Positions 37,689-50,799 of a stretch of 64,000 bases of DNA are shown piece after piece. Source of the DNA: Candidatus Iainarchaeum sp. GTDB taxonomy: Archaea > Iainarchaeota > Iainarchaeia > Iainarchaeales > JAFCCW01. The notes beneath the pieces are model-generated. The model was given only the letters and a program-made list of their open reading frames with translations, made no database searches and was not told the origin of the DNA. Within the stretch, counting starts at the first letter, position 1. The number at the start of each line of letters is the position of its first letter. A program made the translations under genes and the position numbers. The stretch lies in contig JAFCCW010000001.1 in NCBI GenBank assembly GCA_017609985.1, forward strand, positions 116,189-180,188, given 5' to 3'.

Positions 37689-40600
37689 ATGGCAAAAGAC
37701 TACTTAAAGGACCTTATGAAAAAGGTTAAGGAAAAAAAAGAAGAAGAGGCAGAGCCCTCTGAAAAGCAAGACAAACAAGCACGTGTTTCTTCACCCAACT
37801 CTGGTTCTGAAGCTGAGCAAGTAAAAGAAGAGCTTGCTAAAAAAATGAAAATACTTTCCTCTCCTTCAAAAGACACTGAAACACCAGCCCCGGACGCAAG
37901 CCTTAAAGCGCCAACAATTGAACCAGAAGCTGAATCAGCACAGTCTCTGGAAGAAACAGTTGTTCCTGACAAAAGCGAAGTTGAAAAAGAAATAGAAGAA
38001 GCTCCCAAAAAAATAGAAATTGCTTCATATGGAAAAGTTAAGATTTTTAAGATTCCAGGCAAGGAAATGCTTTACTACTATGTTCCAGTGCCGCGCCCAA
38101 CCCGGGCTGAAAGAAACGTAATCAACACAATCAAAGAAGCAGCAACAAGACTGATAAGTATTGCGCCCTACAAGATACGCGATCCAGACCAGAGAAGAGT
38201 TGTTTACAGACAAAAAATAATTGAAATCCTTAAGGCTTCACCAGAACTTCACATCCCCCAGCACAGGTTTGAATTTTATGCAGAATCTGTTGTGCGAGAA
38301 ATGGTTGGATATGGATTAATTGATTCTCTTGTAAGCGATGACAGGCTTGAAGAAATAATGGTTATCGGTCCTGGAAAACCAGTTTACATTTTTCACAGAG
38401 ATTACGAAATGATGGCTTCAAACATTGAATTCTTTTCCGAAGACGAAGTACAAGATTTGATTAACAGAATAGCAAGGCAGATAGGGAGAAGAGTTGACAT
38501 TAGTTCGCCGCTTCTTGATTCTCGTCTGCCGGATGGAAGCAGAGTAAACGCAACTATTCCTCCTGCTTCAGTAAGCGGTTCTACTTTGACAATCAGAAAA
38601 TTCAGAGCAGATCCCTACTCCATGATTGACTTAATTAACATGGGTTCTCTTGGAACAGAGCTTGCTGCTTTTCTCTGGATGGCTGTAGAGGGACTGGGGG
38701 CAAGACCAGCAAATATTCTCATAGCTGGCGGAACCGGGAGTGGAAAAACAACCACGCTTAATGTTCTCGCATCATTTATTTCCGCAAGCGAAAGGATAGT
38801 TACGATTGAGGACACAGCTGAACTCAATCTTCCAATGCAGCACTGGATTAGAATGGAAGCAAGGCCACCTGGGCTTGAAGGAAAAGGAGAGTTAACACTT
38901 GACATTCTCACAAAAAATTCTTTAAGAATGAGACCTGACAGGATAATTGTCGGAGAAGTAAGACATGACGAAGCATTTTCTCTGTTCACTGCAATGAATA
39001 CAGGTCATGACGGAGCATTGACTAGCGATTCCTTAATTCAGCTTTCAGATGGCAACCTAGTTGAAATAGGGGAAATAGTTGAAAAGTCTTTTTCCCAAAA
39101 AAAGCCAACTTCAGAAAATGAATTTGAATTTGTTGAATTGTCAGAAAAAATAAAAGTTCCTTCCCTGAACAAGAAATCACTCAAGATTGAGCACAAGAAC
39201 ATTACTCATTGCTGGAGAAAAAAAACAAAAGAAAATATGATTAGAATAAAATTAAGAAGTGGAAAAGAAATTTGTCTCACAAAAGACCACCCGGTTTACA
39301 AAATTTTTAACGGAATTCAGGAAATAAACTCTTGCGATGCAAAAAAGGGAGACTATCTTGCAATTCCGAAGAAAATCTCTGTTGAATCAAAAGCAGAAGT
39401 TCCAATCCCATATCTTGTGGGGATGGTTCTTGGAGACGGGCATTTAAGGCACGGTCTTGTTGAATTTGTCAATACTGAAGATTCTTTGATTGATGCATTT
39501 TGCAATGAAATTTCTCCGTTAACAAACAATAAGGTTTCAGTAAAAGATTATGGTAATTTTTCACGAGTAAAAGTAAACGATACAAAATTGTCTAAAGAAT
39601 TAAACAAAAAATATTCTATTCCTTTTGGCAATAAAACAAAAAAATTTAAGATTGACAAAAAATTGTTAAAATCAACAAATGAAACAATTTCAGATGCTGT
39701 TAAAGCATTGTTTGATTGCGAAGCTCATGTGAACACAAAAGCAAATTGTATTCAGTTCTCAACAGCAAACAAGGATCTTGCTTTAAAAGTGCCACTTATT
39801 CTTATGCGATTTGGAATTCATTCTTCTTTCTATTCTCAAGAAAAAGATGGAAAAGGAAACAAAGGACCCTATTATTGGATTTCAATTTATGGGAGAGACA
39901 ATTTGGAAAAATTTAGAAAACATATTTGTTTCAGACATGAAAAGAAGAAAACCAAGCTTAATGAATTAATCAAAAAGTCAAAGAATGGTCTTGATTTGTT
40001 TCCGAATATTTCAAATATAATGCGAGATGCGAGAATTGAAAACAGAATTACTCAAAAAGAACTAAGCAGTCTTTTGGGAACGCAAACACGAAGTACTGTT
40101 CAATCTTATGAAACAAAAGCTAGAGCACCATCTAGAAAAAAACTTAAACAGATTGCGGGAATGCTCTCAGGAGAAACAGCCATGCAATTAAACTTGTTGT
40201 CTGATTCAGAAACATGTTTTGAAGAGATTGTTTCAATTGAAGAAGAAAAATTTGAAGGTTATGTGTATGATTTAACTGTTGAAGACAATCACAACTATAT
40301 TGCAAACGGATTTATAGTCTCAAATTGTCTGGGAACAGTCCATGCAAACTCGCCGCAGGAAACAATCATAAGAGTTACAAATCCTCCAATGAATGTTCCT
40401 GAAGTAATGATGTCCGGTCTTGATTTAATAATTATCCAGCACAGACTTCACTCCAAAAAGCAGGGAACAATAAGGCGCTTTACTGAAGTTGCAGAGGTTT
40501 CAGGAGTGCTGGAAGGCAAGACTCAGACTCAAACACTTTTTGACAGAGACCCGGTTGCAGACGATATTGTGAGAACAAATATTCCCAGCAATTACCTCAG

Positions 40601-40760
40601 AAAACTTCAAAACTTCACTGGAATGACAAAAAAGCAGATTGAAAAAGAATTAAGCGAAAGGGAAAGGTTTTTATCTATGCTCGCTAAAAAAGAAATAAGG
40701 TCTCTTGAAGAAGTCTCAAGAATGTGCGGAGAATTTCTAACAGAGAGGAAGGGAGAATAA
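37689..40760 (+). CDS. Type IV filament/secretion ATPase (TadA/EpdL/KlbA/VirB11 family), intein-containing
   Basis: Walker A GGTGSGKTTTLN, Walker B RPDRIIVGEVR, His box AMNTGHDG interrupted by 437 aa, then CLGTVHANSP. Acidic disordered ~115-aa N-terminus. Confidence 0.9.
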   Translation: MAKDYLKDLMKKVKEKKEEEAEPSEKQDKQARVSSPNSGSEAEQVKEELAKKMKILSSPSKDTETPAPDASLKAPTIEPEAESAQSLEETVVPDKSEVEKEIEEAPKKIEIASYGKVKIFKIPGKEMLYYYVPVPRPTRAERNVINTIKEAATRLISIAPYKIRDPDQRRVVYRQKIIEILKASPELHIPQHRFEFYAESVVREMVGYGLIDSLVSDDRLEEIMVIGPGKPVYIFHRDYEMMASNIEFFSEDEVQDLINRIARQIGRRVDISSPLLDSRLPDGSRVNATIPPASVSGSTLTIRKFRADPYSMIDLINMGSLGTELAAFLWMAVEGLGARPANILIAGGTGSGKTTTLNVLASFISASERIVTIEDTAELNLPMQHWIRMEARPPGLEGKGELTLDILTKNSLRMRPDRIIVGEVRHDEAFSLFTAMNTGHDGALTSDSLIQLSDGNLVEIGEIVEKSFSQKKPTSENEFEFVELSEKIKVPSLNKKSLKIEHKNITHCWRKKTKENMIRIKLRSGKEICLTKDHPVYKIFNGIQEINSCDAKKGDYLAIPKKISVESKAEVPIPYLVGMVLGDGHLRHGLVEFVNTEDSLIDAFCNEISPLTNNKVSVKDYGNFSRVKVNDTKLSKELNKKYSIPFGNKTKKFKIDKKLLKSTNETISDAVKALFDCEAHVNTKANCIQFSTANKDLALKVPLILMRFGIHSSFYSQEKDGKGNKGPYYWISIYGRDNLEKFRKHICFRHEKKKTKLNELIKKSKNGLDLFPNISNIMRDARIENRITQKELSSLLGTQTRSTVQSYETKARAPSRKKLKQIAGMLSGETAMQLNLLSDSETCFEEIVSIEEEKFEGYVYDLTVEDNHNYIANGFIVSNCLGTVHANSPQETIIRVTNPPMNVPEVMMSGLDLIIIQHRLHSKKQGTIRRFTEVAEVSGVLEGKTQTQTLFDRDPVADDIVRTNIPSNYLRKLQNFTGMTKKQIEKELSERERFLSMLAKKEIRSLEEVSRMCGEFLTERKGE
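39015..40325 (+). mobile_element. Intein (437 aa) with Ala1, LAGLIDADG homing-endonuclease domain and XRE-type HTH
   Basis: Block A ALTSDSLIQLSDGN, block B LTKDHPV, LAGLIDADG motifs LVGMVLGDGHL and ALFDCEAHV, blocks F/G YVYDLTVEDNHNYIANGFIVSN followed by +1 Cys. Confidence 0.85.
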
Positions 40761-41899
40761 TGTCTGACTTAAATTTTCTCAAAAAGAAAAAGAAAAAGTT
40801 TTCTTCAGTGGAAAGTGTCGACATGGAACAGGTTGATGACATAGTCAAAAAGATGAAGCAAAAATACAGAGACCAAGGAGTAGAGTTTGAAGAAGTTGGC
40901 GGCAGGCTAAGAGAGTTAAGGGGAATAATTGCTGATGGAAAAGCAGCAGAACTTCAGGTTCAAAGAGTAGAGGACTTAAAAGAATTCAAAAATCCATTAG
41001 TAAAAAATCTTGGTTCACTTTATCTAAAAATCAGATCCGTCAGCGAACCAATCTCAAACTTTTTGAGAAAATTGCCAGGAGTCAGAGAAATAGATTATTA
41101 TCTTTACTCAGCAAACATGCATTATTCAGTCAATCAATATCTTGCAATAACAACTGCTGCTGCACTGGTTATAACCGTGCTTGGATTTATTGGACTGGCA
41201 CTTCTTTTAGCAGTTGCAGGAGTAGACTTGATAACAGCCGCAATTCTTTTGCCATTGTTTACTTTCTTTGTATTTGTTTTGTCTGCAGCAATAGTCCTGC
41301 TTATTCCCAGACGAAACGCAAAAACAAGAGGAGATCTTGTAAGCAGGGAATTGCCGTTTGCATTAAGGCACATGGCAACAGAACTCAAATCAGGAATAGG
41401 TCTTTACAGAACAATTCAAGCAATAGCTTCTGCCGGATATGGTCCTTTGTCAGAAGAGTTTGCTGGAATGATTACTGAAGTGGAAGAGGGAACTGACACA
41501 AAACTTGCGTTAAGGCATCTTGCACTAAAAACACAGTCAATGGCTTTGAGAAATGCGTTACTGCACATAATCAGGGCAATGAAAACAGGAGGAAATCTCT
41601 CAGAAGTGATGAATGAAATTGCAGAAGATGTTTCATTTGAACTCAGAATGAAGATGCGGGAATTTTCTCAAAAGATGAACTTCTTTGGAGTGCTCTATAT
41701 TTTTATTGCAATTGTTATGCCAGTCATGCTTGCAGTGCTTGGGGGAATTAGAAATTCTCCAGTTGGAACAAGCGGAATATCAATGTTTTCTGCACTGCCT
41801 TTGACACTCGATGTTCTTGCAGTGCTCTTCCTATTCTTGCTTCCGCTCGTGTTTATATTGCTAATTGCATATTTGATGATGGCTCAGCCAAAGGTTTAG
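40760..41899 (+). CDS. Pilus platform membrane protein (TadB/EpdJ-like, T2SSF domain)
   Basis: TAATG overlap with the ATPase stop. LPFALRHMATELKSGIGL motif with flanking TMs. Confidence 0.8.
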   Translation: MSDLNFLKKKKKKFSSVESVDMEQVDDIVKKMKQKYRDQGVEFEEVGGRLRELRGIIADGKAAELQVQRVEDLKEFKNPLVKNLGSLYLKIRSVSEPISNFLRKLPGVREIDYYLYSANMHYSVNQYLAITTAAALVITVLGFIGLALLLAVAGVDLITAAILLPLFTFFVFVLSAAIVLLIPRRNAKTRGDLVSRELPFALRHMATELKSGIGLYRTIQAIASAGYGPLSEEFAGMITEVEEGTDTKLALRHLALKTQSMALRNALLHIIRAMKTGGNLSEVMNEIAEDVSFELRMKMREFSQKMNFFGVLYIFIAIVMPVMLAVLGGIRNSPVGTSGISMFSALPLTLDVLAVLFLFLLPLVFILLIAYLMMAQPKV

Positions 41900-41907
41900 G
41901 TGAAAAA

Positions 41908-42846
41908 ATGAAAAAAGAAATCAGACCATTAAATTTGCTGGAAAAATACAACAGGATTCTTGACCAAGCAGACATGAAGGCAAAAGCTGAACACTGGATT
42001 TTTGGTTCACTAGCAATATCAGTTGCTCTTGGCTTGGTTACATTTCTGATACTTTTCGCACTAAACACAGTAGTGTCCCCGTTTATGGGGTTAGTTATTT
42101 TTATTGCTGTTCTTGACCTGTCTCTTGGATATCCTTATCTCAGAGCAGAAGCCAGAATTGACAAAATTGAAGCAGCTCTGCCTGACACACTAAAGCAAAT
42201 TGCTGACACTCTAAAGGCGGGGGGAACATATGAATTTGCTCTAAGAGAAGTTGCAATTTCACAGTATGGTCCTCTCTCTGACGAAATGAACAATGTGCTT
42301 AGAAAGCTAGAGGAAGGAGAAAATCTTGAAAACTCTCTTAGAACACTTTCAGACAATATTGATTCAAGAATAGTTAAGAGAAGCATGGAAATAATTATTG
42401 ACTCAATCAAAGCAGGAGCAGGACTCGCAGATGTGCTTGACTCTATTGCAGACGATGTAAGTGCAATGCACCAGATAAAGAGGGGGAGAAAAGCACAGAC
42501 ACTAATGCAGTTTTTGTTTTTGCTTCTAGCAGGAGCAGCAGTTGCTCCGGCAATAATTGGGCTTGTCACGACTGTTATTTCCCTGTTCATAAAAAGTGCT
42601 TCAACAGGATTCATGGGTGGAGAAGAAGCAGTCAAGCAAGCTCTTGAATCAAGGGATATTATGGCATTGCTAATGCAAGTATACTTGTTTATTGAAATTA
42701 TTGCAACAGGAGTAATGATTTCCCTGATGAGGACAGGAAAGATAACCAAAAGTATTTTATATATCCCAATACTACTATTAATCGCTTATATATCTTACTA
42801 TGGAGCATTAATACTTTCCTCTATCGCAGTTGGAGGGGTTATATAA
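41908..42846 (+). CDS. Pilus platform membrane protein (TadC/EpdK-like, T2SSF domain)
   Basis: AGGTGA RBS. LPDTLKQIADTLKAGG motif with flanking TMs. Confidence 0.8.
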   Translation: MKKEIRPLNLLEKYNRILDQADMKAKAEHWIFGSLAISVALGLVTFLILFALNTVVSPFMGLVIFIAVLDLSLGYPYLRAEARIDKIEAALPDTLKQIADTLKAGGTYEFALREVAISQYGPLSDEMNNVLRKLEEGENLENSLRTLSDNIDSRIVKRSMEIIIDSIKAGAGLADVLDSIADDVSAMHQIKRGRKAQTLMQFLFLLLAGAAVAPAIIGLVTTVISLFIKSASTGFMGGEEAVKQALESRDIMALLMQVYLFIEIIATGVMISLMRTGKITKSILYIPILLLIAYISYYGALILSSIAVGGVI

Positions 42847-43007
42847 TGGATGAAAAAGGACAGGCATCAACAGAAGTATTAATCCTGATAGCAGGAGCAG
42901 TTGTTGCAGCAATCGCTGTCGGACTGTATCTGAAAGAAGCTTCAAAAACAATTGAAACTCAGGCACACAATGTTTCTGCTAACATAGTAAATGACTTAGG
43001 TAATTGA
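42846..43007 (+). CDS. Mini-pilin 1 (53 aa, class III signal peptide)
   Basis: Not in ORF track. ATG overlaps the previous TAA. MDEKG|QASTEVLILIAGAVVAAIAVGLY... Confidence 0.75.
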   Translation: MDEKGQASTEVLILIAGAVVAAIAVGLYLKEASKTIETQAHNVSANIVNDLGN

Positions 43008-43033
43008 ATACGTTAATACGGAGGTATGATAAA

Positions 43034-43210
43034 ATGGATGAAAAAGGACAAGGAGCATTAGAATACTTGCTATTAATTGCAGGAGCAGTATTAGTCGCAG
43101 CAGTCGTAATATACTTGTTGAGTACAATGGCTGGAGAAGGAAAAGAGGCTTCAACTAATAGTCTTAATACTGCAACCGGTGGATTGGAAAGCATAAAAAA
43201 TAATATTTAA
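43034..43210 (+). CDS. Mini-pilin 2 (58 aa)
   Basis: GGAGGT RBS. MDEKG|QGALEYLLLIAGAVLVAAVVIY. The track start 43004 adds an unconserved extension. Confidence 0.8.
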   Translation: MDEKGQGALEYLLLIAGAVLVAAVVIYLLSTMAGEGKEASTNSLNTATGGLESIKNNI

Positions 43211-43231
43211 TTGTGTTTCATTGGTGTAAAA

Positions 43232-43402
43232 ATGGATGAAAAAGGACAAGGTGCAATAGAGTATCTCTTGCTGATTGCCGCAGCAGTGCTTGTAGCAGCA
43301 GTAGTAATCTACACAATGGCAAACATTCTTGCGCCGACAAAAAATACAATCAATGAAGAGCTCAATCACGGGCTTGGGCATTTTACTACTGGTTCGCCAT
43401 AA
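43232..43402 (+). CDS. Mini-pilin 3 (56 aa)
   Basis: GGTG RBS. MDEKG|QGAIEYLLLIAAAVLVAAVVIY. Confidence 0.8.
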   Translation: MDEKGQGAIEYLLLIAAAVLVAAVVIYTMANILAPTKNTINEELNHGLGHFTTGSP

Positions 43403-43411
43403 GGGATTGCA

Positions 43412-43582
43412 ATGGATGAAAAAGGGCAAGTAAGTTTTGAATACCTCCTCACTGTTCTCTTTGGAATAGTGCTGGCTTTTGCAGCATTCTTGCTTGCCCA
43501 ATACGTCTTTGTGCTTTCAGGAATTGCTCAGGTCAAGGTTTCAAATGCAAGTACTGACGCGATTTCAACAATGATGGGATAG
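43412..43582 (+). CDS. Mini-pilin 4 (56 aa)
   Basis: Not in ORF track. MDEKG|QVSFEYLLTVLFGIVLAFAAFLL (QxSxE motif). Confidence 0.75.
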   Translation: MDEKGQVSFEYLLTVLFGIVLAFAAFLLAQYVFVLSGIAQVKVSNASTDAISTMMG

Positions 43583-44719
43583 GTGATTAAAATATCCCAA
43601 CAGCTTCTTTTTTTCGAAATTGCTTATTTTTCTCTTGTGTTTACGGGAATCGCAATAGCAACCTTCACAGACCTTAAAGAGAGAATAATTCCAAACAAGC
43701 TGACCTATTCAATGATTGCAGTGGGTTTGCTTTTGCATCTTGCAGAATCAATTTTGCTTCAAAATTTTAATCCGATTCTGTTCAGTGCAATAATAACTGT
43801 TGCAACTTTTGGAGGCTCTTGGCTTTTGTGGAAAGCAGGAGTCTGGGCTGGTGGAGATGTAAAACTGTTCACAGGAATTGCTGCCTTGCTTCCTTATCTT
43901 CCATCAATTTCAGCTTCCAGTTCAGCTCTGAATTTTTTGCCGCAAGAGCTCACTTTCCTGCTGTCCTTTGTTCCACTAACGCTCTTTGTTCTATCAATTT
44001 TCTCAGCACTCCCCTATGGTGTGCTGATTAGTATTCACGCAATCTCCAAAAAGAGGGAATTCCAAAAACAGATTGTTCAAGATTTCAAAAAAAGATTTTT
44101 GCAAACAGCAGTGTTCTCGTTTCTTGTGGCTGGGTTAAGCTTTGCTCTTGTCGAGCTCTCAATTCCAGACCTGCTGTTGCTTCCAGTGCTTATAGTCACA
44201 GGATTTATTCCGGCAAAGGCAAGAAAGCTTGGGGCAATAGTCTTGTTTGCAGCAGCAGTTATTTTTCAAGGCACAACAGCAGTTATTGCTTTTTTTTCAG
44301 TTCTGATTCCACTCTCTATTCTTTATGCTTTGATAAAACTTTTCCTTGTTTCAAGGAAAGCCCTCAAAGAAGAAGTTAAAATTTCTGAAATCGAAGAAGG
44401 GACAATTCCTGCTGAAACAATTCTTGAAGTAGACGGAGTTGTTAAAAGAGTTGAAGGAATTTCAATAAAAACAATTATAAATAACATAAAGAATAATAAA
44501 ATGCAGGAAGCACTTGAAGAACTCGTGCCAAAAGGCAGGGAAATTGTTTCTGCAAAAAAAGCAAGAGGAGTCACAGACGAAGAAATTGCAGAACTAAAAA
44601 AGCTTGTGAAAGAGGGCAAAATTGAACCAGTCATGAAAGTCAAAAAAAGCATGCCCTTTGTTCCCACTGTCTTGATTGGTTTTATTGTGCTTATTGCATG
44701 GGTGATGTTATTTGGCTAA
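43583..44719 (+). CDS. Prepilin/preflagellin peptidase (A24 aspartic protease, FlaK/EppA-like)
   Basis: Catalytic Asp contexts FTDLKERIIPN and WAGGDVKLF. Soluble insert before the last TM. GTG start. Confidence 0.85.
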   Translation: MIKISQQLLFFEIAYFSLVFTGIAIATFTDLKERIIPNKLTYSMIAVGLLLHLAESILLQNFNPILFSAIITVATFGGSWLLWKAGVWAGGDVKLFTGIAALLPYLPSISASSSALNFLPQELTFLLSFVPLTLFVLSIFSALPYGVLISIHAISKKREFQKQIVQDFKKRFLQTAVFSFLVAGLSFALVELSIPDLLLLPVLIVTGFIPAKARKLGAIVLFAAAVIFQGTTAVIAFFSVLIPLSILYALIKLFLVSRKALKEEVKISEIEEGTIPAETILEVDGVVKRVEGISIKTIINNIKNNKMQEALEELVPKGREIVSAKKARGVTDEEIAELKKLVKEGKIEPVMKVKKSMPFVPTVLIGFIVLIAWVMLFG

Positions 44720-45152
44720 AATTGGAAAAAAAGGACAGGTTTCAATAGAATTCATGCTCTTGGTTGTAATGATGCTGATATATGGACACTTTCTTATCAC
44801 AAACCATGTGGAACCATCAGAGCTAGCAATCAATGACACTGCACAAGCAGCTCAAACAAGAATTGCTGCTGAAAGAATAGCAAACTCAATCAAAGAAGTT
44901 TCAGCCTCGTTTGGAGATGCAAAAAAAACAGTTCACATAAACATGCCTTCTGACTCAGAGCTAATTTGCAATCCTCCGGAAATGAATTTTAATGTTCTTG
45001 AAGAGGATAGTGTTTCAATAAAATATTCTGGTGTTGTTAATGCAGGCACATCATTCACCTGTTTGCCGGGCTCTGGCGTGAATTTAAAAGGCCCTTATTC
45101 TGTTGAAATAATCAAAACAGGTTCGGGAACAAATGTAATATTTAATGGATAA
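44712..45152 (+). CDS. Pilin-like protein (class III signal peptide)
   Basis: M(A)KIGKKG|QVSIEFMLLVV. TTG start overlapping the peptidase stop. Confidence 0.7.
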   Translation: MAKIGKKGQVSIEFMLLVVMMLIYGHFLITNHVEPSELAINDTAQAAQTRIAAERIANSIKEVSASFGDAKKTVHINMPSDSELICNPPEMNFNVLEEDSVSIKYSGVVNAGTSFTCLPGSGVNLKGPYSVEIIKTGSGTNVIFNG

Positions 45153-45169: not shown

Positions 45170-45526
45170 GTGGAAAAAAAAGCTCAGGCAAGTTTTGAAA
45201 TGCTTTTCATAGCTCTTATAGTTCTCTCTGGAGCATTTGCTCTCACTAGCTTTTATTTTATTGAAGCAGACAGTCTTGGTTCACAATCAATCGCAAGAGC
45301 AGAGTATTCAAGAGTCTTTTCTGAACTAGCTGAGCAAAGAGGAATTTACTGCAGTTTGGACAGCATGAATTACAGTGGTTCAGGAGCAGGAGCAGATTTG
45401 ATTATCTATGTTTACCCGCCCAATAACTCTGAGTGCAAAACAATCTGTTCTTCCAATAGCTCAGAAATTGAAAGAATGATTGAAGAGAATACTTCTCTTG
45501 TAGCAATAAATATTTCCTGCTCATAG
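45170..45526 (+). CDS. Pilin-like protein (class III signal peptide)
   Basis: MEKKA|QASFEMLFIALIVL. GTG start after GGTG. Several N-x-S/T sequons. Confidence 0.7.
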   Translation: MEKKAQASFEMLFIALIVLSGAFALTSFYFIEADSLGSQSIARAEYSRVFSELAEQRGIYCSLDSMNYSGSGAGADLIIYVYPPNNSECKTICSSNSSEIERMIEENTSLVAINISCS

Positions 45527-45588: not shown

Positions 45589-45948
45589 ATGCTAAATAGA
45601 GAGTTGGCTGCTAGAACAGCTCTTGCAATATCTATTGCAGGGATAGCCTTGCTTTTTATAGCCACTGCATTGGATTCTCCAAAAGAAATAATTCTGGGGG
45701 AAATTTCTCAAGAGCTTGTTGGCAAGCAGGTTAGAACAAAAGCTCTTGTTCAATGGACTTCACTCTCTTCCGGCATTCTATTGTTTGGATTGTACGATGG
45801 AAACACTGTCAAAGTAGTCAAATTCAACCCATCTCCTGAAGAAAAAGCAATTGTTTCAAAAGGACTATTTGTTTCAGTCAGCGGGGTAGTGCAGGACTAC
45901 AAGGGAGAGATTGAAATAGTTGCGGAAAGGATTGAAAAATATGGCTGA
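45589..45948 (+). CDS. Membrane-anchored OB-fold protein
   Basis: One N-terminal TM, then an OB-like V..V.GVVQDYKGEIEI pattern. Confidence 0.55.
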   Translation: MLNRELAARTALAISIAGIALLFIATALDSPKEIILGEISQELVGKQVRTKALVQWTSLSSGILLFGLYDGNTVKVVKFNPSPEEKAIVSKGLFVSVSGVVQDYKGEIEIVAERIEKYG

Positions 45949-47170
45949 TGTGCTTGAACTTCTTGTATATGTTGTTGGGGGGAGCATTGCAGGAGTATTC
46001 ACTGGACTCTGCCCTGGAGTGCATGTAAACACTGTTGCAATGCTGGCAGTAGCATTTTCAATTACTGGAAAACAAGAACTGTCTCTTGCAGTTATTTCAA
46101 TGGCTGTGACTCATTCAATAGTTGACTTTGTTCCAAGTGTATTACTTGGTGCGCCAAATTCATCAGAATTTCTATCAGTCCTGCCAGGCCATGAGCTTCT
46201 TTTGAAGGGAAAGGCAATGGAAGCAGTCAATTTAAGCGCATTAGGTGCTCTTTTTGGTGGCTTGGGGGCAATATTGCTTGGATTTGCTGTCTCAGAATTA
46301 GCAATTCAGTCAGCAGAAGTTCTTCAATTTTCAATTCCGTTTATTCTCTTAGCTGTTCTGATATTGATGGTTTTTGGAGAAGAAAGCAGGGTTCAGAGAA
46401 AAAGAGCTTTTCTTGTCGCGCTTCTTTCATCACTGCTTGGAATAATTGCATTGTCTTCTGCTACTTTAGCTTCTTCAAATTCTTCGGCTTTTTCGTCTTC
46501 TTCAAAGATGCTCTTTCCTCTTGTTACTGGTTTTTTCGGAGTTTCCAATCTTTTGCACTCAATTGGAAAAAACTCAAAAATTCCAAAACAAAAACCTTTC
46601 TCTGGAAAAACAAGCAGGAAACTTGTTTTTGAAGGCTGTGGAACAGGAATTATTGCAAGTGCTCTGGTTTCAATAATCCCATCTATCGGGCCTTCGCAGG
46701 CAGCCTTTCTTTTGAAGCACTTTGTTGGCTCAATCAAGAGAGAAAGCTATCTTGTCCTGCTTGGAGCAGTAGGCACAGCAAACACTGTTTTTTCATATTT
46801 TGTGTTCTTTTCGACAGGAAAAATAAGGACTGGTGTGGCAGCAGCAATTTCTGAGTTGGGGGCAGAACAAAACATCTTATACATAATCTCTGCTGTGTTT
46901 GTTTCCCTCGGAATCGGCTATTTTTTCTCACTCTATTTCTCTAAAAAAATTCTTTGCATTGTTCAAAAAGTAAATTATTCTGCTTTAAGCTCTGGAATAG
47001 CAGTGTTTCTCTCAATTCTTGTTGTGCTGTTTTCTGGAACAACAGGATTTCTTGTATTTGTGACAGCAACAGCAATCGGATACTATTCAATAGCTCGCGG
47101 AATAAAGAGAATCAACACCATGGCTTTTTTGATGGTGCCTACTATACTGATTTATTTGAATGCCTTCTAA
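45941..47170 (+). CDS. Polytopic membrane protein, TctA/DUF112-like
   Basis: GLCPGVHVNTVA motif and >=10 TM segments. ATG 45941 (track start is TTG). Confidence 0.55.
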   Translation: MADVLELLVYVVGGSIAGVFTGLCPGVHVNTVAMLAVAFSITGKQELSLAVISMAVTHSIVDFVPSVLLGAPNSSEFLSVLPGHELLLKGKAMEAVNLSALGALFGGLGAILLGFAVSELAIQSAEVLQFSIPFILLAVLILMVFGEESRVQRKRAFLVALLSSLLGIIALSSATLASSNSSAFSSSSKMLFPLVTGFFGVSNLLHSIGKNSKIPKQKPFSGKTSRKLVFEGCGTGIIASALVSIIPSIGPSQAAFLLKHFVGSIKRESYLVLLGAVGTANTVFSYFVFFSTGKIRTGVAAAISELGAEQNILYIISAVFVSLGIGYFFSLYFSKKILCIVQKVNYSALSSGIAVFLSILVVLFSGTTGFLVFVTATAIGYYSIARGIKRINTMAFLMVPTILIYLNAF

Positions 47171-47178
47171 GATATGTA

Positions 47179-47577
47179 ATGGATTTCAAAGATTTCAATC
47201 ATTTCAAAGCCACCAAGATAAAAGAATCAACTCTTGAAGACATTCTTGAAGCTTCGCGCAATACTTACCCAAACGAGTTCATGGCATTGCTTGGGGGAGA
47301 TAAGAAAGCAGGAGTTGTGGATGAAATAGTTATTGTTCCCGCAACCTATGGGCGAGAGCACGCAATAATTCACACAAACCAGGTTCCAATGGATTTTAGG
47401 ATAATGGGCAGTGTTCACTCTCATCCGTCTCCAAATGCTTTCCCTTCAAAAGGGGACTTGCGCACTTTTCCACGACTTGGAGAGATACATTTTATAATCG
47501 CTTACCCCTTTGATTTAAACAGTACAAGAGCCTTTGACTCTGCGGGAAATGAAATAGAATTTGAGGTAATTGAATAA
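47179..47577 (+). CDS. JAMM/MPN+ metalloprotease domain protein
   Basis: Exact HxHx7Sx2D motif: HSHPSPNAFPSKGD, with upstream E (NEFMALLGG). Confidence 0.8.
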   Translation: MDFKDFNHFKATKIKESTLEDILEASRNTYPNEFMALLGGDKKAGVVDEIVIVPATYGREHAIIHTNQVPMDFRIMGSVHSHPSPNAFPSKGDLRTFPRLGEIHFIIAYPFDLNSTRAFDSAGNEIEFEVIE

Positions 47578-47603: not shown

Positions 47604-49145
47604 ATGAATCAAAAAGAAAAAATTGTTCTCATTGTAATGGATGGCTGGGGAATTGCGCCTGCTGGAAAAGGAAACTGCATTTCTCAGGCAAGCACTCCAA
47701 ACTATGACAGATTTATTGCAAACTATCCAAACTGTGAAAATAAGGCATCTGGGAAAGCAGTTGGTTTGCCAGAGGGAAGTCAGGGAAACAGTGAGGTTGG
47801 ACATCTTCACATGGGCGCAGGCAGGATTGTCTGGCAACCGTTTCAAAAAATAAACAACGAGATTGAAAAAGGAAGTTTTTTCAAGAATCCTGCTTTGCTT
47901 AAGGCAATCAAAGAAGCAAGAGAAAACAAAACTATTCTTCACTTAATGGGATTGTGCTCTGATGAAGGAGTGCATGCGCACATTGCTCATCTGTTTGCAT
48001 TGCTTGAGATGGCAAAAAAAGAGGGCTTGGAAAAAGAACAGGTTCTGATTCACTTTTTTGCAGACGGTCGGGATGTTCCTGAAAAAAGTGCTTCAAAATA
48101 TATCACGCAAATTGAAAGCAAGTGCAAAGAGCTTGGCATAGGAATGATCGCAAGTCTTATTGGAAGATATTATTCAATGGACAGAGACAACAACTGGAAA
48201 AGAACAAAAAAAGCATATAAAATGTTAACGTTTGGAAAAGGATTCAAAGCAAAGAATGCCTTGTCCGCAGTTAAAGAATCTTACGAGCGCGGAGACAAAA
48301 CAGACTACTATATTCAGCCGACTGTGATTGAAAATGCATTCAAACCAGTTAAAGACAAGGACTCAATAATTTTCTTCAATTTTAGAACAGACAGACCAAG
48401 ACAGCTGACAAAAGCTTTTTTGCTCAAAGACTTTAAAGAATTCAAAAGAGAAAAAAAGCCAAGCGTATTGTTTACAACATTTACTCAGTATGATAAAAGC
48501 GTAAAAACTGGAGTCGCATTTGAAGAAGAACAAGTTTCAGTCACTCTTGGAGGCGTGATTGCTGAAGCTGGATTAAAACAGCTTCGCATTGCGGAAACAG
48601 AAAAATATGCTCATGTAACCTATTTTTTTAATTCTCAAAATGAAAATCCCTATCCTGGAGAGGAAAGAAAGCTTGTTCCCTCTCCAAAAGTCTCAAGCTA
48701 TGATCAAAAGCCGGAAATGTCTGCCTACGAGCTTGCGGAAGAAACAGAAAAAGCAATTTATTCAAAAAAATACGACTTTGTTCTGTTAAACTTTGCAAAC
48801 TGCGATCTTGTAGGACACTCTGCAGTTATTCCTGCAATAATCAAGTGTGTTGAAGTAGTTGACGAGTGTGTGGGGAGAGTAGTGAAGAAAGCATTAGAAA
48901 ATGGGTATAGCTGCCTGCTCACCGCAGACCATGGGAGTGCAGAAGAAAAATTATATCCAAACGGCGAGCCAAATCCAGCTCACACTACAAATCCTGTTCC
49001 ATTTATTCTTGTTTCGAATAATCCTGCACTGAAAAAAGTCAAGCTTGCGAACGGAGGCCAAAAAGATGTTGCTCCAACAGTAATTGAATTAATGGGGCTA
49101 AAAAAGCCAGGTGAAATGACTGGCGAGAGCCTTATTGAAGACTAA
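47604..49145 (+). CDS. gpmI: 2,3-bisphosphoglycerate-independent phosphoglycerate mutase (bacterial GpmI type)
   Basis: IVMDGWG, GNSEVGH, TADHGSAE motifs; 513 aa. Confidence 0.9.
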   Translation: MNQKEKIVLIVMDGWGIAPAGKGNCISQASTPNYDRFIANYPNCENKASGKAVGLPEGSQGNSEVGHLHMGAGRIVWQPFQKINNEIEKGSFFKNPALLKAIKEARENKTILHLMGLCSDEGVHAHIAHLFALLEMAKKEGLEKEQVLIHFFADGRDVPEKSASKYITQIESKCKELGIGMIASLIGRYYSMDRDNNWKRTKKAYKMLTFGKGFKAKNALSAVKESYERGDKTDYYIQPTVIENAFKPVKDKDSIIFFNFRTDRPRQLTKAFLLKDFKEFKREKKPSVLFTTFTQYDKSVKTGVAFEEEQVSVTLGGVIAEAGLKQLRIAETEKYAHVTYFFNSQNENPYPGEERKLVPSPKVSSYDQKPEMSAYELAEETEKAIYSKKYDFVLLNFANCDLVGHSAVIPAIIKCVEVVDECVGRVVKKALENGYSCLLTADHGSAEEKLYPNGEPNPAHTTNPVPFILVSNNPALKKVKLANGGQKDVAPTVIELMGLKKPGEMTGESLIED

Positions 49146-49197: not shown

Positions 49198-49575
49198 ATG
49201 AAAAGAGGACAAGTAAGCTTTGATGCAATGCTTGCATTAGTTGCAATGATTGTGTTTCTAAGCATGTTGTTTGTAATTTTTGGGTCTGTTGAAAGCGCTT
49301 CACAAGAATCAGCCATGAAAGCACAGGCAAAATTGATCCTGGGTTCAACAGCAGATGCAATAGCAGCAAAGCAAATACTGAGAGACGGAAGCAACAAGAT
49401 TTATTTTGAGGTTCCAGACCTGCCAAACTCTGAGCCAGGCTCTTGTCAGGTTACTGTTTCTGGAGGCCAGGCAACAGTAAGCTATGAATACAAAGGAGTG
49501 ATTGAACAAGTAAGCACTCCAGTTGTTGGTTCGCATAGTCTTAGTCAAGTATGTGGGAGCAGTGAAGTTATATGA
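49198..49575 (+). CDS. Pilin-like protein
   Basis: MKRG|QVSFDAMLALVAMIVFL. Confidence 0.65.
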   Translation: MKRGQVSFDAMLALVAMIVFLSMLFVIFGSVESASQESAMKAQAKLILGSTADAIAAKQILRDGSNKIYFEVPDLPNSEPGSCQVTVSGGQATVSYEYKGVIEQVSTPVVGSHSLSQVCGSSEVI

Positions 49576-50060
49576 ATCGAAAAGCCCAGATTTTCTCACT
49601 TGACTTTCTTTTCTCTCTAGCAATAATGGTTTTAGTAATTGGATTTATTCTAATGTTCCTAGACCTTTCGCTTGCAGCACAAAAAGATGAAATGATTTGG
49701 ACAGAGTTGAAGGAGACCGGAAACACTGCATCAAACCTGTTAGTGGGAAATCCAAAAATAACCTGTGATTTGGTTGATGTCTCCGGCGACAAAATAATGG
49801 AGATGCCAAACTGCGTTAACAAAAGTGCTTCATTTTCAAGAACAGATTTAGGAATTCCATCTGCATCTGAAGGCTATCAATGCAGGATAACAATTGGAAG
49901 CTGGGTTGCACCAGCCTGCAATACATCACCTCCATCCTCAGCTTCAAATATTTATTCAACTCAAAGAATTGTGATTTCAAGCAATGGAGATGTAAGAAAA
50001 GATTCAATTCCTTCAAATCATGAAATAGCAGAAATAAAAGTCTGGAGGTCACTAGCTTGA
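49572..50060 (+). CDS. Pilin-like protein
   Basis: ATGA overlap. MNRKA|QIFSLDFLFSLAIMVLVIGF. Confidence 0.6.
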   Translation: MNRKAQIFSLDFLFSLAIMVLVIGFILMFLDLSLAAQKDEMIWTELKETGNTASNLLVGNPKITCDLVDVSGDKIMEMPNCVNKSASFSRTDLGIPSASEGYQCRITIGSWVAPACNTSPPSSASNIYSTQRIVISSNGDVRKDSIPSNHEIAEIKVWRSLA

Positions 50061-50335
50061 AGAAAGGATTTATTTTCTCGCTTGACGCAGCTCTGGCAGC
50101 AATGCTTGCTCTCTCGCTTGTAACAGTGGGCTTGCTTATTATTGCTTGGGGCGAAGCAAACAATTTCAGTGAAGTGCAAAAATATGCAGCAGACGCAGCA
50201 ATTGTTTCATCATACACTCTTGAAGAGCCAGGAGAATTCTCTTCAGAAGGAATTAACCAAGCGATTTCAAACAGTTCAGAAAACGGAGCCTGCTTTAGCT
50301 ATTCAGGAAAAAACTATTGCAGTGAGACAGGATGA
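50057..50335 (+). CDS. Pilin-like protein
   Basis: TTGA overlap. MKKG|FIFSLDAALAAMLALSLV. Confidence 0.55.
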   Translation: MKKGFIFSLDAALAAMLALSLVTVGLLIIAWGEANNFSEVQKYAADAAIVSSYTLEEPGEFSSEGINQAISNSSENGACFSYSGKNYCSETG

Positions 50336-50799
50336 AAAAAGGATTTTACACAGCAGCAGTTGCTATTGCAGCAATAATGATACTTTCAGCAGTTTCTTTT
50401 TACACTCTTTCAGTAACTCAAACAGAGTCAACTCATCTGTCACAGGATGCTGCAATACTCAAAGGAGAATGGGTAAAATCAGCAAGGCTTATTGATTACG
50501 AGATAGCGCAGATGATTTACAATAATCCAGCAGGATGTGATTGTGCAGGCGCGGTTAACGTAGCAGGGCTTCAAACAGCACTCAACACTGCAAAAATAAA
50601 CTGTGCTGTCGGAGCAGGTCTTGACTATGTCTGTTCAGGAAACACTGCAACAGCAACAGTTCCAATCAAATGCTATTTTTCAGGAATGGAATATGAAAAA
50701 ACAGTTGATTATGAAAAACAGGTTTTGACTGGAGCAGGGTGTGAAGTTCTTGATGTGCAAAGCAACTCTGTTCAAAGCAATGGAACTATTTGGGATTAA
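50332..50799 (+). CDS. Pilin-like protein
   Basis: ATGA overlap. MKKG|FYTAAVAIAAIMILSAVSF. Cys-rich C-terminal domain. Confidence 0.55.
   Translation: MKKGFYTAAVAIAAIMILSAVSFYTLSVTQTESTHLSQDAAILKGEWVKSARLIDYEIAQMIYNNPAGCDCAGAVNVAGLQTALNTAKINCAVGAGLDYVCSGNTATATVPIKCYFSGMEYEKTVDYEKQVLTGAGCEVLDVQSNSVQSNGTIWD

Follow-up and report, generated by a model that had tools for sequence, protein, structure and literature searches.

A compact operon with four mini-pilin genes, probably encoding an Epd-like type IV pilus, in Candidatus Iainarchaeum

The window, which is the whole 64,000-nucleotide stretch of Candidatus Iainarchaeum DNA analyzed here, contains four very small genes in tandem between type IV pilus platform genes and a prepilin peptidase gene. 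The features of the locus, all on the forward strand and with predicted cleavage sites marked by a slash, are as follows.

37689..40760 (+), pilus assembly ATPase of the T2SSE family, TadA/CpaF/EpdL-like (Pfam T2SSE, Intein_splicing and LAGLIDADG_3)
40724..41899 (+), platform protein 1, TadB-like (Pfam T2SSF, 74.9 bits, in one stretch; kept in loci L001-L023 of the comparison)
41908..42846 (+), platform protein 2, TadC-like (Pfam T2SSF, 55.9 bits, in one stretch)
42846..43007 (+), mini-pilin p1, 53 aa; predicted leader MDEKG and mature product of 48 aa starting QASTEV, helix ending GLYLK; "first" class
43034..43210 (+), mini-pilin p2, 58 aa; predicted leader MDEKG and mature product of 53 aa starting QGALEYLLLIAGAVLVAAVV; "middle" class
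43232..43402 (+), mini-pilin p3, 56 aa; predicted leader MDEKG and mature product of 51 aa starting QGAIEY; "middle" class
43412..43582 (+), mini-pilin p4, 56 aa; predicted leader MDEKG and mature product of 51 aa starting QVSFEYLLT and ending STMMG; "last" class
43583..44719 (+), prepilin peptidase, A24 aspartyl protease of the large EppA-like type (Pfam Peptidase_A24 and Arc_PepC)
44712..45152 (+), larger pilin-like protein, 146 aa; predicted leader MAKIGKKG/QVSIEF; PF04021, 20.6 bits; putative minor pilin
45170..45526 (+), larger pilin-like protein, 118 aa; predicted leader MEKKA/QASFEM; weak PF04021 match; putative minor pilin

A sequence-only reading of the window had described four tandem small open reading frames, each beginning with MDEKG followed by Gln, with Glu at position +5 of a mature product of 48-53 aa. 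Each of these points was borne out: the four frames encode 53, 58, 56 and 56 aa, the mature ends read QASTE, QGALE, QGAIE and QVSFE, and the predicted mature lengths of p1 to p4 are 48, 53, 51 and 51 aa. Its further statement that two of the genes are invisible to an open reading frame track holds only under a cut-off of at least 60 aa, which p1 and p4 fall short of and which p2 and p3 pass by way of an upstream in-frame TTG.

The four mini-pilin genes are real and conserved. The exact protein sequences of p1 to p4 are all present in the NCBI and JGI gene-call collections, positional orthologues were found in 20 or more loci from other genomes, and a profile search with the mini-pilin family recovered 1364 cluster representatives at E<=1e-3. 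Within the phylum, 213/215 genomes carry the family, among them all of the high-quality ones (58/58). That p1 to p4 are chance open reading frames was ruled out by this conservation and by the omega values given below.

Strong Shine-Dalgarno sequences precede p1 (GGAGGGG, -10.9 kcal/mol) and p2 (GGAGGT, -10.3 kcal/mol), and the second pilin gene likewise has a strong one (-8.1 to -10.7) in the loci with listed values. All four genes are identical over their first 18-20 nt. A nucleotide-level element was rejected as the cause, since the leader codons vary synonymously between genomes, and we prefer codon preference together with short gene-conversion tracts. Single N-glycosylation sequons occur in p1 (NVS) and p4 (NAS), and AglB is encoded; the sequons are not conserved in the aligned orthologues, and we make no claim of N-glycosylation.

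We then compared the helix and tail parts of the genes. Over the first 27 codons, p2 and p3 differ by 12 synonymous and 2 nonsynonymous changes and share 13 identical codons, so that the count in the sequence-only reading was exact. Its conclusion that the paralogues are old and under purifying selection also stood, with saturated dS, an omega of about 0.07 for the p2/p3 helix and 1:1 positional orthologues elsewhere. Gene conversion has nevertheless touched this old paralogy, since middle-class paralogues in several genomes have homogenised 5' ends.

Strong purifying selection acts on the N-terminal helix, and the tails change rapidly. Omega ranges from 0.01 to 0.15 in the helix, where dS is saturated, and from 0.3 to >1 in the tail. 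The heterogeneity of Nd/Sd between helix and tail gave a Fisher p of 4e-6 for p2 of the window versus p2 of locus L020, and of 2e-4 for p2 of L020 versus L023. The p2 helix is identical to that of the relatives P0008, P0010 and P0011, and the tails differ. For p3, the tail is related to that of its orthologue (P0002/L019 gene 3).

The four genes belong to three old, position-specific classes: first (p1), middle (p2 and p3) and last (p4). On the tree of the family, the position classes account for 5 label changes, compared with 22.2 in shuffled labels, and none of 200 shuffles was as low. The p1 gene falls together with the genes that occupy the first position in other loci (SH-aLRT 91), and 11 of the 12 members of the last class, which is always the final pilin before the peptidase, form a clade (SH-aLRT 89). 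Across distant genomes the first and last classes are single copy, fixed in position and marked by their own helix signatures (QxSxEV..GLYLK and QVSFEYLLT, respectively). Copy number changes in the middle class alone, from 1 to 3.

It was proposed that the unrelated tails provide alternative filament surfaces. The paralogue tails are indeed unalignable (pN 0.48-0.66). If all four proteins were interchangeable major pilins, they would form alternative or mixed filaments whose tails give different surfaces toward hosts or substrates or in virus evasion. The unalignable tails fit this proposal, as do the p2-type tails that vary between close strains around an identical helix and a tail omega of about 1-2 for the closest pair, L020 and L023, although the values >1 rest on fewer than 10 substitutions. 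However, single-copy first and last classes with fixed positions and private helix signatures are the pattern of specialised minor pilins, and a copy number that varies in the middle class only also argues against interchangeability, which we consider unlikely. Since each tail is kept in its positional orthologue and the three classes are ancient, a division of labour between major and minor pilins is at least as likely as alternative surfaces.

To classify the signal peptides, we used the Pfam model PF04021 (Class_IIIsignal, formerly DUF361). Relative to its gathering threshold of 23.7 bits, p3 (37.9 bits) and p2 (34.6 bits) score above and p1 (22.6 bits) and p4 (14.7 bits) below, and within the last class, that of p4, only 5 of 12 members match at E<=0.1. 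All four mini-pilins have Lys at -2, Gly at -1, Gln at +1 and Glu at +5. Ser is found at +3 only in p1 and p4, where p2 and p3 have Ala, and +6 is Tyr in p2 to p4 and Val in p1. Among 159 matched family members (13 initial matches plus the top matches of the profile search), Lys or Arg occupies -2 in 152, Gly or Ala occupies -1 in all 159 and Tyr occupies +6 in 157; 108 of them have a leader of 5 aa. The PF04021 matches, the K-G/Q site and the adjacent peptidase that aligns with EppA support the reading of p1 to p4 as predicted class III signal proteins and likely EppA-type substrates. With TIGR04205, an archaeosortase-associated class III protein, p1 scored 26.6 bits; the cut-off of that model is 65, and membership was rejected.

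A Kyte-Doolittle scan shows a hydrophobic stretch of 24-33 residues in all four proteins, running from +2 to +25..+34. The AlphaFold2 model of p3 is one continuous helix over residues 3-53 (pLDDT 82.6), so that, together with the mature lengths, the Flp-like size and single-helix shape suggested by the sequence-only reading hold in the model. A Foldseek search of the PDB with this model returned 0 matches, an outcome that carries no information when the model is a single helix.

These properties also bear on whether p1 to p4 might instead be small single-pass membrane proteins, for example accessory subunits of the platform, that are neither cleaved nor polymerised. The hydrophobic stretch of p4 is unusually long (to about +34) and its PF04021 match is poor, and the MDEKG leader is net acidic, whereas classic class III leaders are basic. 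On the other hand, the invariant [KR][GA]/Q...E-Y signature and the position between platform and peptidase genes in 13 other MAG loci are both hallmarks of prepilins, and the predicted single long helix is like that of the solved Tad pilin (PMC10710030). Such an identity therefore appears highly improbable.

We also analyzed the genes surrounding the array. An intein interrupts the pilus ATPase gene at about 39015-40325. Among solved structures, the spliced extein best matches the bacterial Tad ATPase CpaF (PDB 8RKD, 265 bits), ahead of the A. fulgidus GspE-like protein (2OAP, 241 bits) and FlaI (204 bits); against NCBIfam, the FlaI model is the top match and the TadA family the second. The ATPase ATG is preceded, at a distance of about 35 nt, by a TTTAAATA box. 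The true start of platform protein 1 is likely the ATG at 40760, and the stop of platform protein 2 overlaps the start of p1 by 1 nt.

The peptidase (378 aa) has predicted catalytic residues Asp30 and Asp92 (GGD), both of which align with those of FlaK (3S0X). Its best NCBIfam model is EppA, with residues 13-374 aligned to positions 4-332 of 334. Since the score is 50 bits against an equivalog cut-off of 450, "EppA-like" refers here to architecture, not orthology. A crude hydropathy scan gave about 8-10 hydrophobic segments; system-1 peptidases of the EppA type are large (about 9 TM), in contrast to the 6-TM FlaK/PibD type.

The 146-aa pilin-like protein is kept after the peptidase in 8 loci. 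Its AlphaFold2 model consists of a helix (residues 5-65) and a beta domain (pLDDT 69), and Foldseek of the model returned nothing below E=0.3. The gene for the 118-aa protein is the last of the operon and is followed by a T-rich spacer.

The gene order is identical in 13 of 18 loci from other MAGs, three close metagenome contigs carry the same pilin array and platform genes, and the operon recurs with 3-5 mini-pilins in Iainarchaeum and Micrarchaeota MAGs. In many relatives the synteny of the operon extends to genes for a membrane-anchored OB-fold protein of nucleic-acid-binding type, a large membrane protein resembling TctA/DUF112 and a protein with a JAB domain. The genome of 1.16 Mb encodes four T2SSE ATPases and two A24 peptidases, the second of which (271 aa) lies elsewhere, so that cross-talk with other systems is possible. 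No archaellin was found in the genome.

The system was compared with the Epd pilus of Methanococcus maripaludis as published. Substrates of EppA have leaders of 5-13 aa ending in Gly, with Gln at +1 and Glu at +5, and the major pilin MMP1685 (EpdE) has 62 mature residues (PMC3875500). The Epd pilins processed by EppA are EpdE/MMP1685 (major), EpdD/MMP1283, MMP0528 and MMP0903, and the tabulated processing sites of EpdB-E are K-G/Q, as in p1 to p4 (PMC4371748). By this description, both systems share the class III leader ending in Gly, the K-G/Q site, Glu at +5, and small pilins without a globular domain (54-63 mature residues in Epd and 48-53 in the window). Each system also has its own large A24 peptidase, a pair of platform genes and some larger pilins, which are putative minor pilins in the window and minor pilins of 130-156 aa in Epd (PMC3875500, PMC4371748, PMC4858521).

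The differences lie in layout and in distance. While the window holds one compact operon (ATPase, two platform genes, four pilins, peptidase and two pilins), in M. maripaludis the genes occupy four or more separate loci, and those for the small pilins stand alone. The window leader is net acidic, and the window peptidase is only distantly related to EppA, as its score indicates. In M. maripaludis, single deletions of EpdB, EpdC or EpdD abolish piliation.

Bacterial Tad/Flp pili have been proposed to descend from the Epd-like "system 1" pilus, and Tad and Epd-like systems have short pilins and a split platform in common (PMC6668835). In Flp pilins the cleavage site is followed by a hydrophobic motif, G/xxxxEY (PMC10710030). 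PilA of Caulobacter crescentus (PDB 8U1K), with 45 mature residues, is a single helix without a C-terminal domain, and the window mini-pilins are predicted to be alike. Glu5-Tyr6 is common to the window (GAIEYLLLIAA) and the Flp pilin (TAIEYGLIVAL), with Val at +6 in p1; Gly7 of the Flp motif is Leu in the window, and the window has Gln at +1. In both systems the pilin genes adjoin the peptidase gene and the platform is split into TadB and TadC. Bacterial Flp leaders are longer. No TadZ-like gene was found in the operon, and to our knowledge a secretin is not expected in an archaeon.

Judged by motif, a mature length of 40-60 aa and a predicted helix-only shape, p1 to p4 fit the Flp description, with EY in p2 to p4 and EV in p1. 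However, the Flp family models were not matched: p3, the only mini-pilin with a score, gave 12.8 bits against a threshold of 32.2 for Flp_Fap (PF04964) and 13.7 against 33.5 for Flp1_like (PF16982). Alignment with 8U1K PilA by hhalign covered 11 columns at 7% probability, so Flp homology is not demonstrated, and the family profile searched against PDB sequences found chance transmembrane-helix matches only and did not reach 8U1K. The mini-pilins thus resemble Flp pilins in motif, size and predicted helix, and by these sequence comparisons are not members of the Flp family.

We propose, with a probability of about 0.85, that p1 to p4 are prepilins of an archaeal type IV pilus of the Epd-like kind ("system 1", related to Tad). 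Each prepilin would enter the membrane through its one hydrophobic helix, and the EppA-like A24 protease encoded in cis (Asp30/Asp92) would cut off the five-residue leader after Gly5 (K-G/Q). The TadA/CpaF-like ATPase and the split TadB/TadC-like platform would then pull out the subunits of 48-53 residues and assemble them as a thin all-helix filament. The conserved N-terminal residues, about 21 in number (QGALEYLLLIAGAVLVAAVVI), would form the core of this filament, and the polar, fast-evolving C-terminal residues, about 25, its surface. The middle class would supply the bulk subunit or subunits, with p2 as the best-translated candidate major subunit, and the p1 and p4 classes together with the 146- and 118-aa pilins would be low-abundance pilins for priming, tip or anchoring, an allocation whose whole basis is Shine-Dalgarno strength and the conservation pattern. 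In this DPANN archaeon, whose 1.16 Mb genome has no archaellins, the pilus most likely serves adhesion to surfaces or host cells.

The same machine could, on the other hand, build a short pseudopilus or endopilus for DNA uptake or protein export, in which the mini-pilins act as a piston. The syntenic OB-fold, TctA/DUF112-like and JAB-domain genes lend this some weight, as does the reliance of small-genome DPANN archaea on nucleotides and DNA taken up from outside. However, fast evolution of the tails argues for exposure to the outside, and the closest systems, Epd and Tad, function in adhesion (PMC6668835). We regard a pseudopilus as improbable and retain the Epd-like pilus as the preferred reading.

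Components of Epd-like system 1 have been described in DPANN archaea, including MIA14_0170-0177 of Micrarchaeon Mia14 (PMC5498576), and a 2026 survey lists 1990 Nanobdellati genomes with system-1 pilins (PMC13705601). In that survey, DPANN loci are rarely ordered and pilins are scattered, whereas the window and 13 of the 18 MAG loci have one ordered operon. The last pilin class, which is largely missed by PF04021, may contribute to under-detection in DPANN surveys.

The system of the window is an ordinary, well-preserved member of a pilus type described in methanogens and surveyed in DPANN, and the mini-pilin operon leaves the current picture of type IV filaments unchanged. Helix-only tiny pilins are the feature that links archaeal Epd to bacterial Tad/Flp pili. 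From Glu5-Tyr6 in the pilins and an ATPase that is closest to CpaF among solved structures, one might suppose that, of living archaeal systems, the compact DPANN operon stands nearest to the ancestor from which bacterial Tad pili arose, with an all-helical pilus built from three obligatory pilin classes and tails that set the host or surface specificity of an episymbiont; we consider this speculative and rather doubtful, as we do the further idea that the OB-fold, TctA-like and JAB genes in synteny with the operon link its pilus to nucleic-acid uptake. For archaeal pili of this type, neither the PDB nor the literature searched yielded a high-resolution structure. The window provides a complete single-operon example, near-universal in the phylum, of a frozen core and a variable surface. 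Since the operon is complete and has three conserved classes with this core and surface, it lends itself reasonably to heterologous reconstitution and to cryo-EM, and it should be useful for asking how DPANN cells attach to their hosts.

We found four successive ORFs (p1-p4) on the + strand at 42846-43582. Their 5' ends all read ATG GAT GAA AAA GG(A/G) CA(A/G), encoding MDEKGQ, and Gly5 is followed by QASTE in p1, QGALE in p2, QGAIE in p3 and QVSFE in p4. The MDEKG leader, with Gln at +1 (the first mature residue) and Glu at +5, is therefore present in all four, as the sequence-only reading had described. The predicted mature products have 48, 53, 51 and 51 residues, each with a single hydrophobic stretch from +2 to between +25 and +34 and then a polar tail. 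An AlphaFold2 model of p3, made with the family alignment, is one continuous helix (residues 3-53, mean pLDDT 82.6), matching the earlier description of products of about 48-53 aa with one hydrophobic helix and a short tail; a Foldseek search with this model returned nothing usable. The claim that two of the four are invisible to the ORF track held for the 60-aa track, because p1 and p4 are shorter than 60 aa and p2 and p3 exceed it only via upstream in-frame TTG codons. Yet the exact proteins of all four, MDEKG start included, are already in the NCBI and JGI gene-call collections.

The mini-pilin genes lie within one tightly packed operon, laid out as follows (a slash marks the predicted cleavage site).

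37689-40760: ATPase of the T2SSE family, intein-bearing
40724-41899: platform gene, TadB-like, one T2SSF domain
41908-42846: platform gene, TadC-like, one T2SSF domain, its stop overlapped by 1 nt by the p1 start
42846-43007, + strand: p1, 53 codons
43034-43210, + strand: p2, 58 codons
43232-43402, + strand: p3, 56 codons
43412-43582, + strand: p4, 56 codons
43583-44719: A24 prepilin peptidase, 378 aa, Arc_PepC domain, directly after the p4 stop
after the peptidase, in the closing pair: larger pilin-like gene, 146 aa, MAKIGKKG/QVSIEF
in the closing pair, up to 45526: larger pilin-like gene, 118 aa, MEKKA/QASFEM

A TTTAAATA box stands upstream of the ATPase gene, and a T-rich spacer follows 45526. 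The mini-pilin genes are 26, 21 and 9 nt apart. Their Shine-Dalgarno strengths are -10.9 (p1) and -10.3 (p2) versus -5.4 (p3) and -6.0 (p4) kcal/mol, and in every relative with values listed the second array gene has a strong GGAGG-type site. These strengths tentatively make p2 the leading candidate for major subunit, with p1 and p4 perhaps being specialised minor pilins.

Aligned with FlaK (3S0X), the peptidase retains the two catalytic residues Asp30 and Asp92 (GGD). Its best NCBIfam model is EppA, the prepilin peptidase of Methanococcus maripaludis, aligned over the full length at 50 bits versus an equivalog cut-off of 450. With the intein removed, the ATPase scored 265 bits against CpaF (8RKD), the bacterial Tad ATPase, 241 against the archaeal 2OAP and 204 against FlaI; judged from such scores it appears closer to CpaF than to the solved archaeal homologues, in agreement with a proposed Tad/Epd-like clade. 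The 146-aa protein was modelled by AlphaFold2, at pLDDT 69, as a pilin-like "lollipop" with a helix over residues 5-65 and a beta domain, and Foldseek with this model also gave nothing usable. The genome (1.16 Mb, 37 contigs, about 87% complete) encodes four T2SSE ATPases, two A24 peptidases and one AglB, and no archaellin was found in it.

In M. maripaludis, EppA substrates carry Gly-ended leaders of 5-13 aa with +1 Gln and +5 Glu, and the mature pilins MMP0528, MMP0903 and MMP1283 have 54-63 aa and the major pilin MMP1685 62 aa (PMC3875500). The processing sites are KGQI, KGQV and KGQL, and EppA requires the +1 Gln (PMC4371748). Clade 1 systems combine a pair of platform genes with a 9-TM EppA and major pilins of about 70 aa (Makarova et al., PMC4858521). 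Denise et al. placed Tad and Epd-like systems, whose pilins are short and whose platform is split, in one clade and traced bacterial Tad back to an archaeal system of that type (PMC6668835). A "Methanococci-group" pilus locus was reported in Micrarchaeon Mia14 (PMC5498576), and a 2026 survey counted 1990 DPANN genomes with system-1 pilins and called ordered loci rare in DPANN (PMC13705601). Thus, p1-p4 add one more case, very tidy and with still shorter pilins, to a known kind of pilus.

The likeness to bacterial Flp pilins proposed from sequence extends to size, the single helix, Glu5-Tyr6 and a gene beside the peptidase. However, neither the Flp family models nor a profile alignment to PilA (8U1K) recognised p1-p4, which were therefore not assigned to the Flp family. 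By analogy, p1-p4 may still work like Flp pilins. How they relate to Methanococcus Epd and bacterial Tad was judged from best-hit scores.

Pfam PF04021 (Class_IIIsignal) matches all four proteins; p2 and p3 pass its gathering threshold, and p1 and p4 fall short. A word-based search gave 12 relatives, one named "class III signal peptide-containing protein" by NCBI, and scanning 1.84 billion cluster representatives with a profile gave 1364 family members at E<=1e-3. We pooled 160 sequences (13 word-search matches and the best matches of the 1364). QxxxE is present in 159/160, Tyr at +6 in 157/160 and a mature length of <=60 residues in 68/160; the five-residue leader, found in 108/160, is the family norm. 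The family consensus reads M-[DEN]-x-[KR]-[GA]/QGALEYLLLIGGAVLVAA. Many family members, p1 (leader at 42846-42860) among them, have a five-residue leader of net acidic or neutral charge (D/E at position -4 in 101/159 and N in 32/159), and its only basic position is the K/R at -2; classic class III leaders are basic. This raises the question of a link to membrane topology or N-terminal modification.

Relatives occur at 18 loci in species-representative genomes, whose titles name Candidatus Iainarchaeum, Micrarchaeota, "Hadarchaeota" (one) and unclassified archaea. Thirteen of the 18 share the order ATPase, TadB, TadC, three to five small or pilin-like genes, peptidase, usually with larger pilin-like genes next. 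Within the phylum of the window, the family is found in 213/215 genomes, including 58/58 high-quality ones, and tandem arrays are common.

The array recurs in three close relatives (loci L019, L020 and L023), gene for gene in 1:1 positional orthology. Among 51 mini-pilins from arrays of at least three genes, array position predicts sequence class. The first class has the signature …E[VY]L.L..G….GLYLK; the middle class, in 1-3 copies, QGA[LI]EYLLLIAGAVLVAA; and the last class QV[SA]FEYLLT… with a tail ending …LM[QGS]. The tree requires 5 position-label changes versus 22.2 in shuffles (0/200 as low), with 11/12 last-class members in one clade (SH-aLRT 89) and ten first-class genes in another (SH-aLRT 91); the paralogy therefore predates the divergence of these lineages. 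PF04021 mostly misses the last class (5/12 members match at E<=0.1).

The earlier count between p2 and p3 was exact: the first 27 codons comprise 13 identical, 12 synonymous and 2 non-synonymous. Nei-Gojobori analysis gave saturated dS; omega was 0.01-0.15 over codons 1-30, and in the tails it ranged from 0.3 to >1 (Fisher test of the helix/tail contrast, p=4e-6 for window versus L020 p2 and p=2e-4 for L020 versus L023 p2). The p2-type tails vary between strains sharing identical helices. Position classes, saturated dS and low helix omega bear out the view of the paralogues as old and under purifying selection, but middle-class 5' ends are identical within genomes, over 20 nt in the window (43034-43053 versus 43232-43251), 32 nt in L019 and L020, 38 in L001, 74 in L006 and at least 99 in L018, while synonymous differences separate one genome from another in that stretch. 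This pattern indicates short gene-conversion tracts or recent extra duplications atop the old paralogy.

In the mechanism we propose, the prepilins would insert into the membrane and be cut at K-G/Q by the EppA-like peptidase, after which the ATPase and split platform would assemble the mature helices as a filament. Its core would consist of the invariant ~21 residues at the N-terminus and its surface of the variable tail, a layout likened to that of the solved Caulobacter Tad pilus (PMC10710030).

Downstream of the operon (45589-47577 and 49198-50799) are genes for an OB-fold protein anchored in the membrane (Pfam tRNA_anti-codon OB fold), a membrane protein resembling TctA/DUF112 and a JAB/MPN protein, as well as four pilin-like genes that make up a second cluster. 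These are syntenic with the pilus operon in homologous loci L001, L004-L008, L010, L012, L017 and L018; in relatives the pilin-like genes directly follow the JAB gene, and in the window an iPGM gene (47604-49145) lies between. They may be pilus partners, for example in nucleic-acid binding or uptake.

Elsewhere in the genome, a stand-alone A24 peptidase of 271 aa with both catalytic Asp motifs (G000:C25:78931-79746) adjoins SRP-type genes; together with the 378-aa enzyme it recalls the pairing of FlaK and EppA in methanococci. The 271-aa enzyme could act on two second-cluster proteins (50057-50799) in which Phe replaces Gln at +1. The contig of the window also carries, on the - strand at G000:C25:8560-9152, a 58-aa mini-pilin (MSLELDSKA/QISVEL...) and then a 139-aa pilin-like protein (MRA/QVSLEY...). 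A stand-alone 38-codon ORF at G000:C27:30895-31011, MFLKKG/QGTTEYLVILALIVVIVLIVFGVMGWFPGLSS, is preceded by a GGTGG Shine-Dalgarno and scores 23.4 bits, a borderline value, with PF04021; the mature product, should the gene be real, would have 32 residues, below the 40-60 quoted for Tad pilins (PMC10710030).

Modestly new are the complete single-operon organisation in DPANN, the three ancient position-specific mini-pilin classes, the last of them largely outside the reach of PF04021, the net-acidic leader, the kept synteny with the OB-fold, TctA-like and JAB genes and the second pilin cluster, and the near-universal presence of the family in the phylum.
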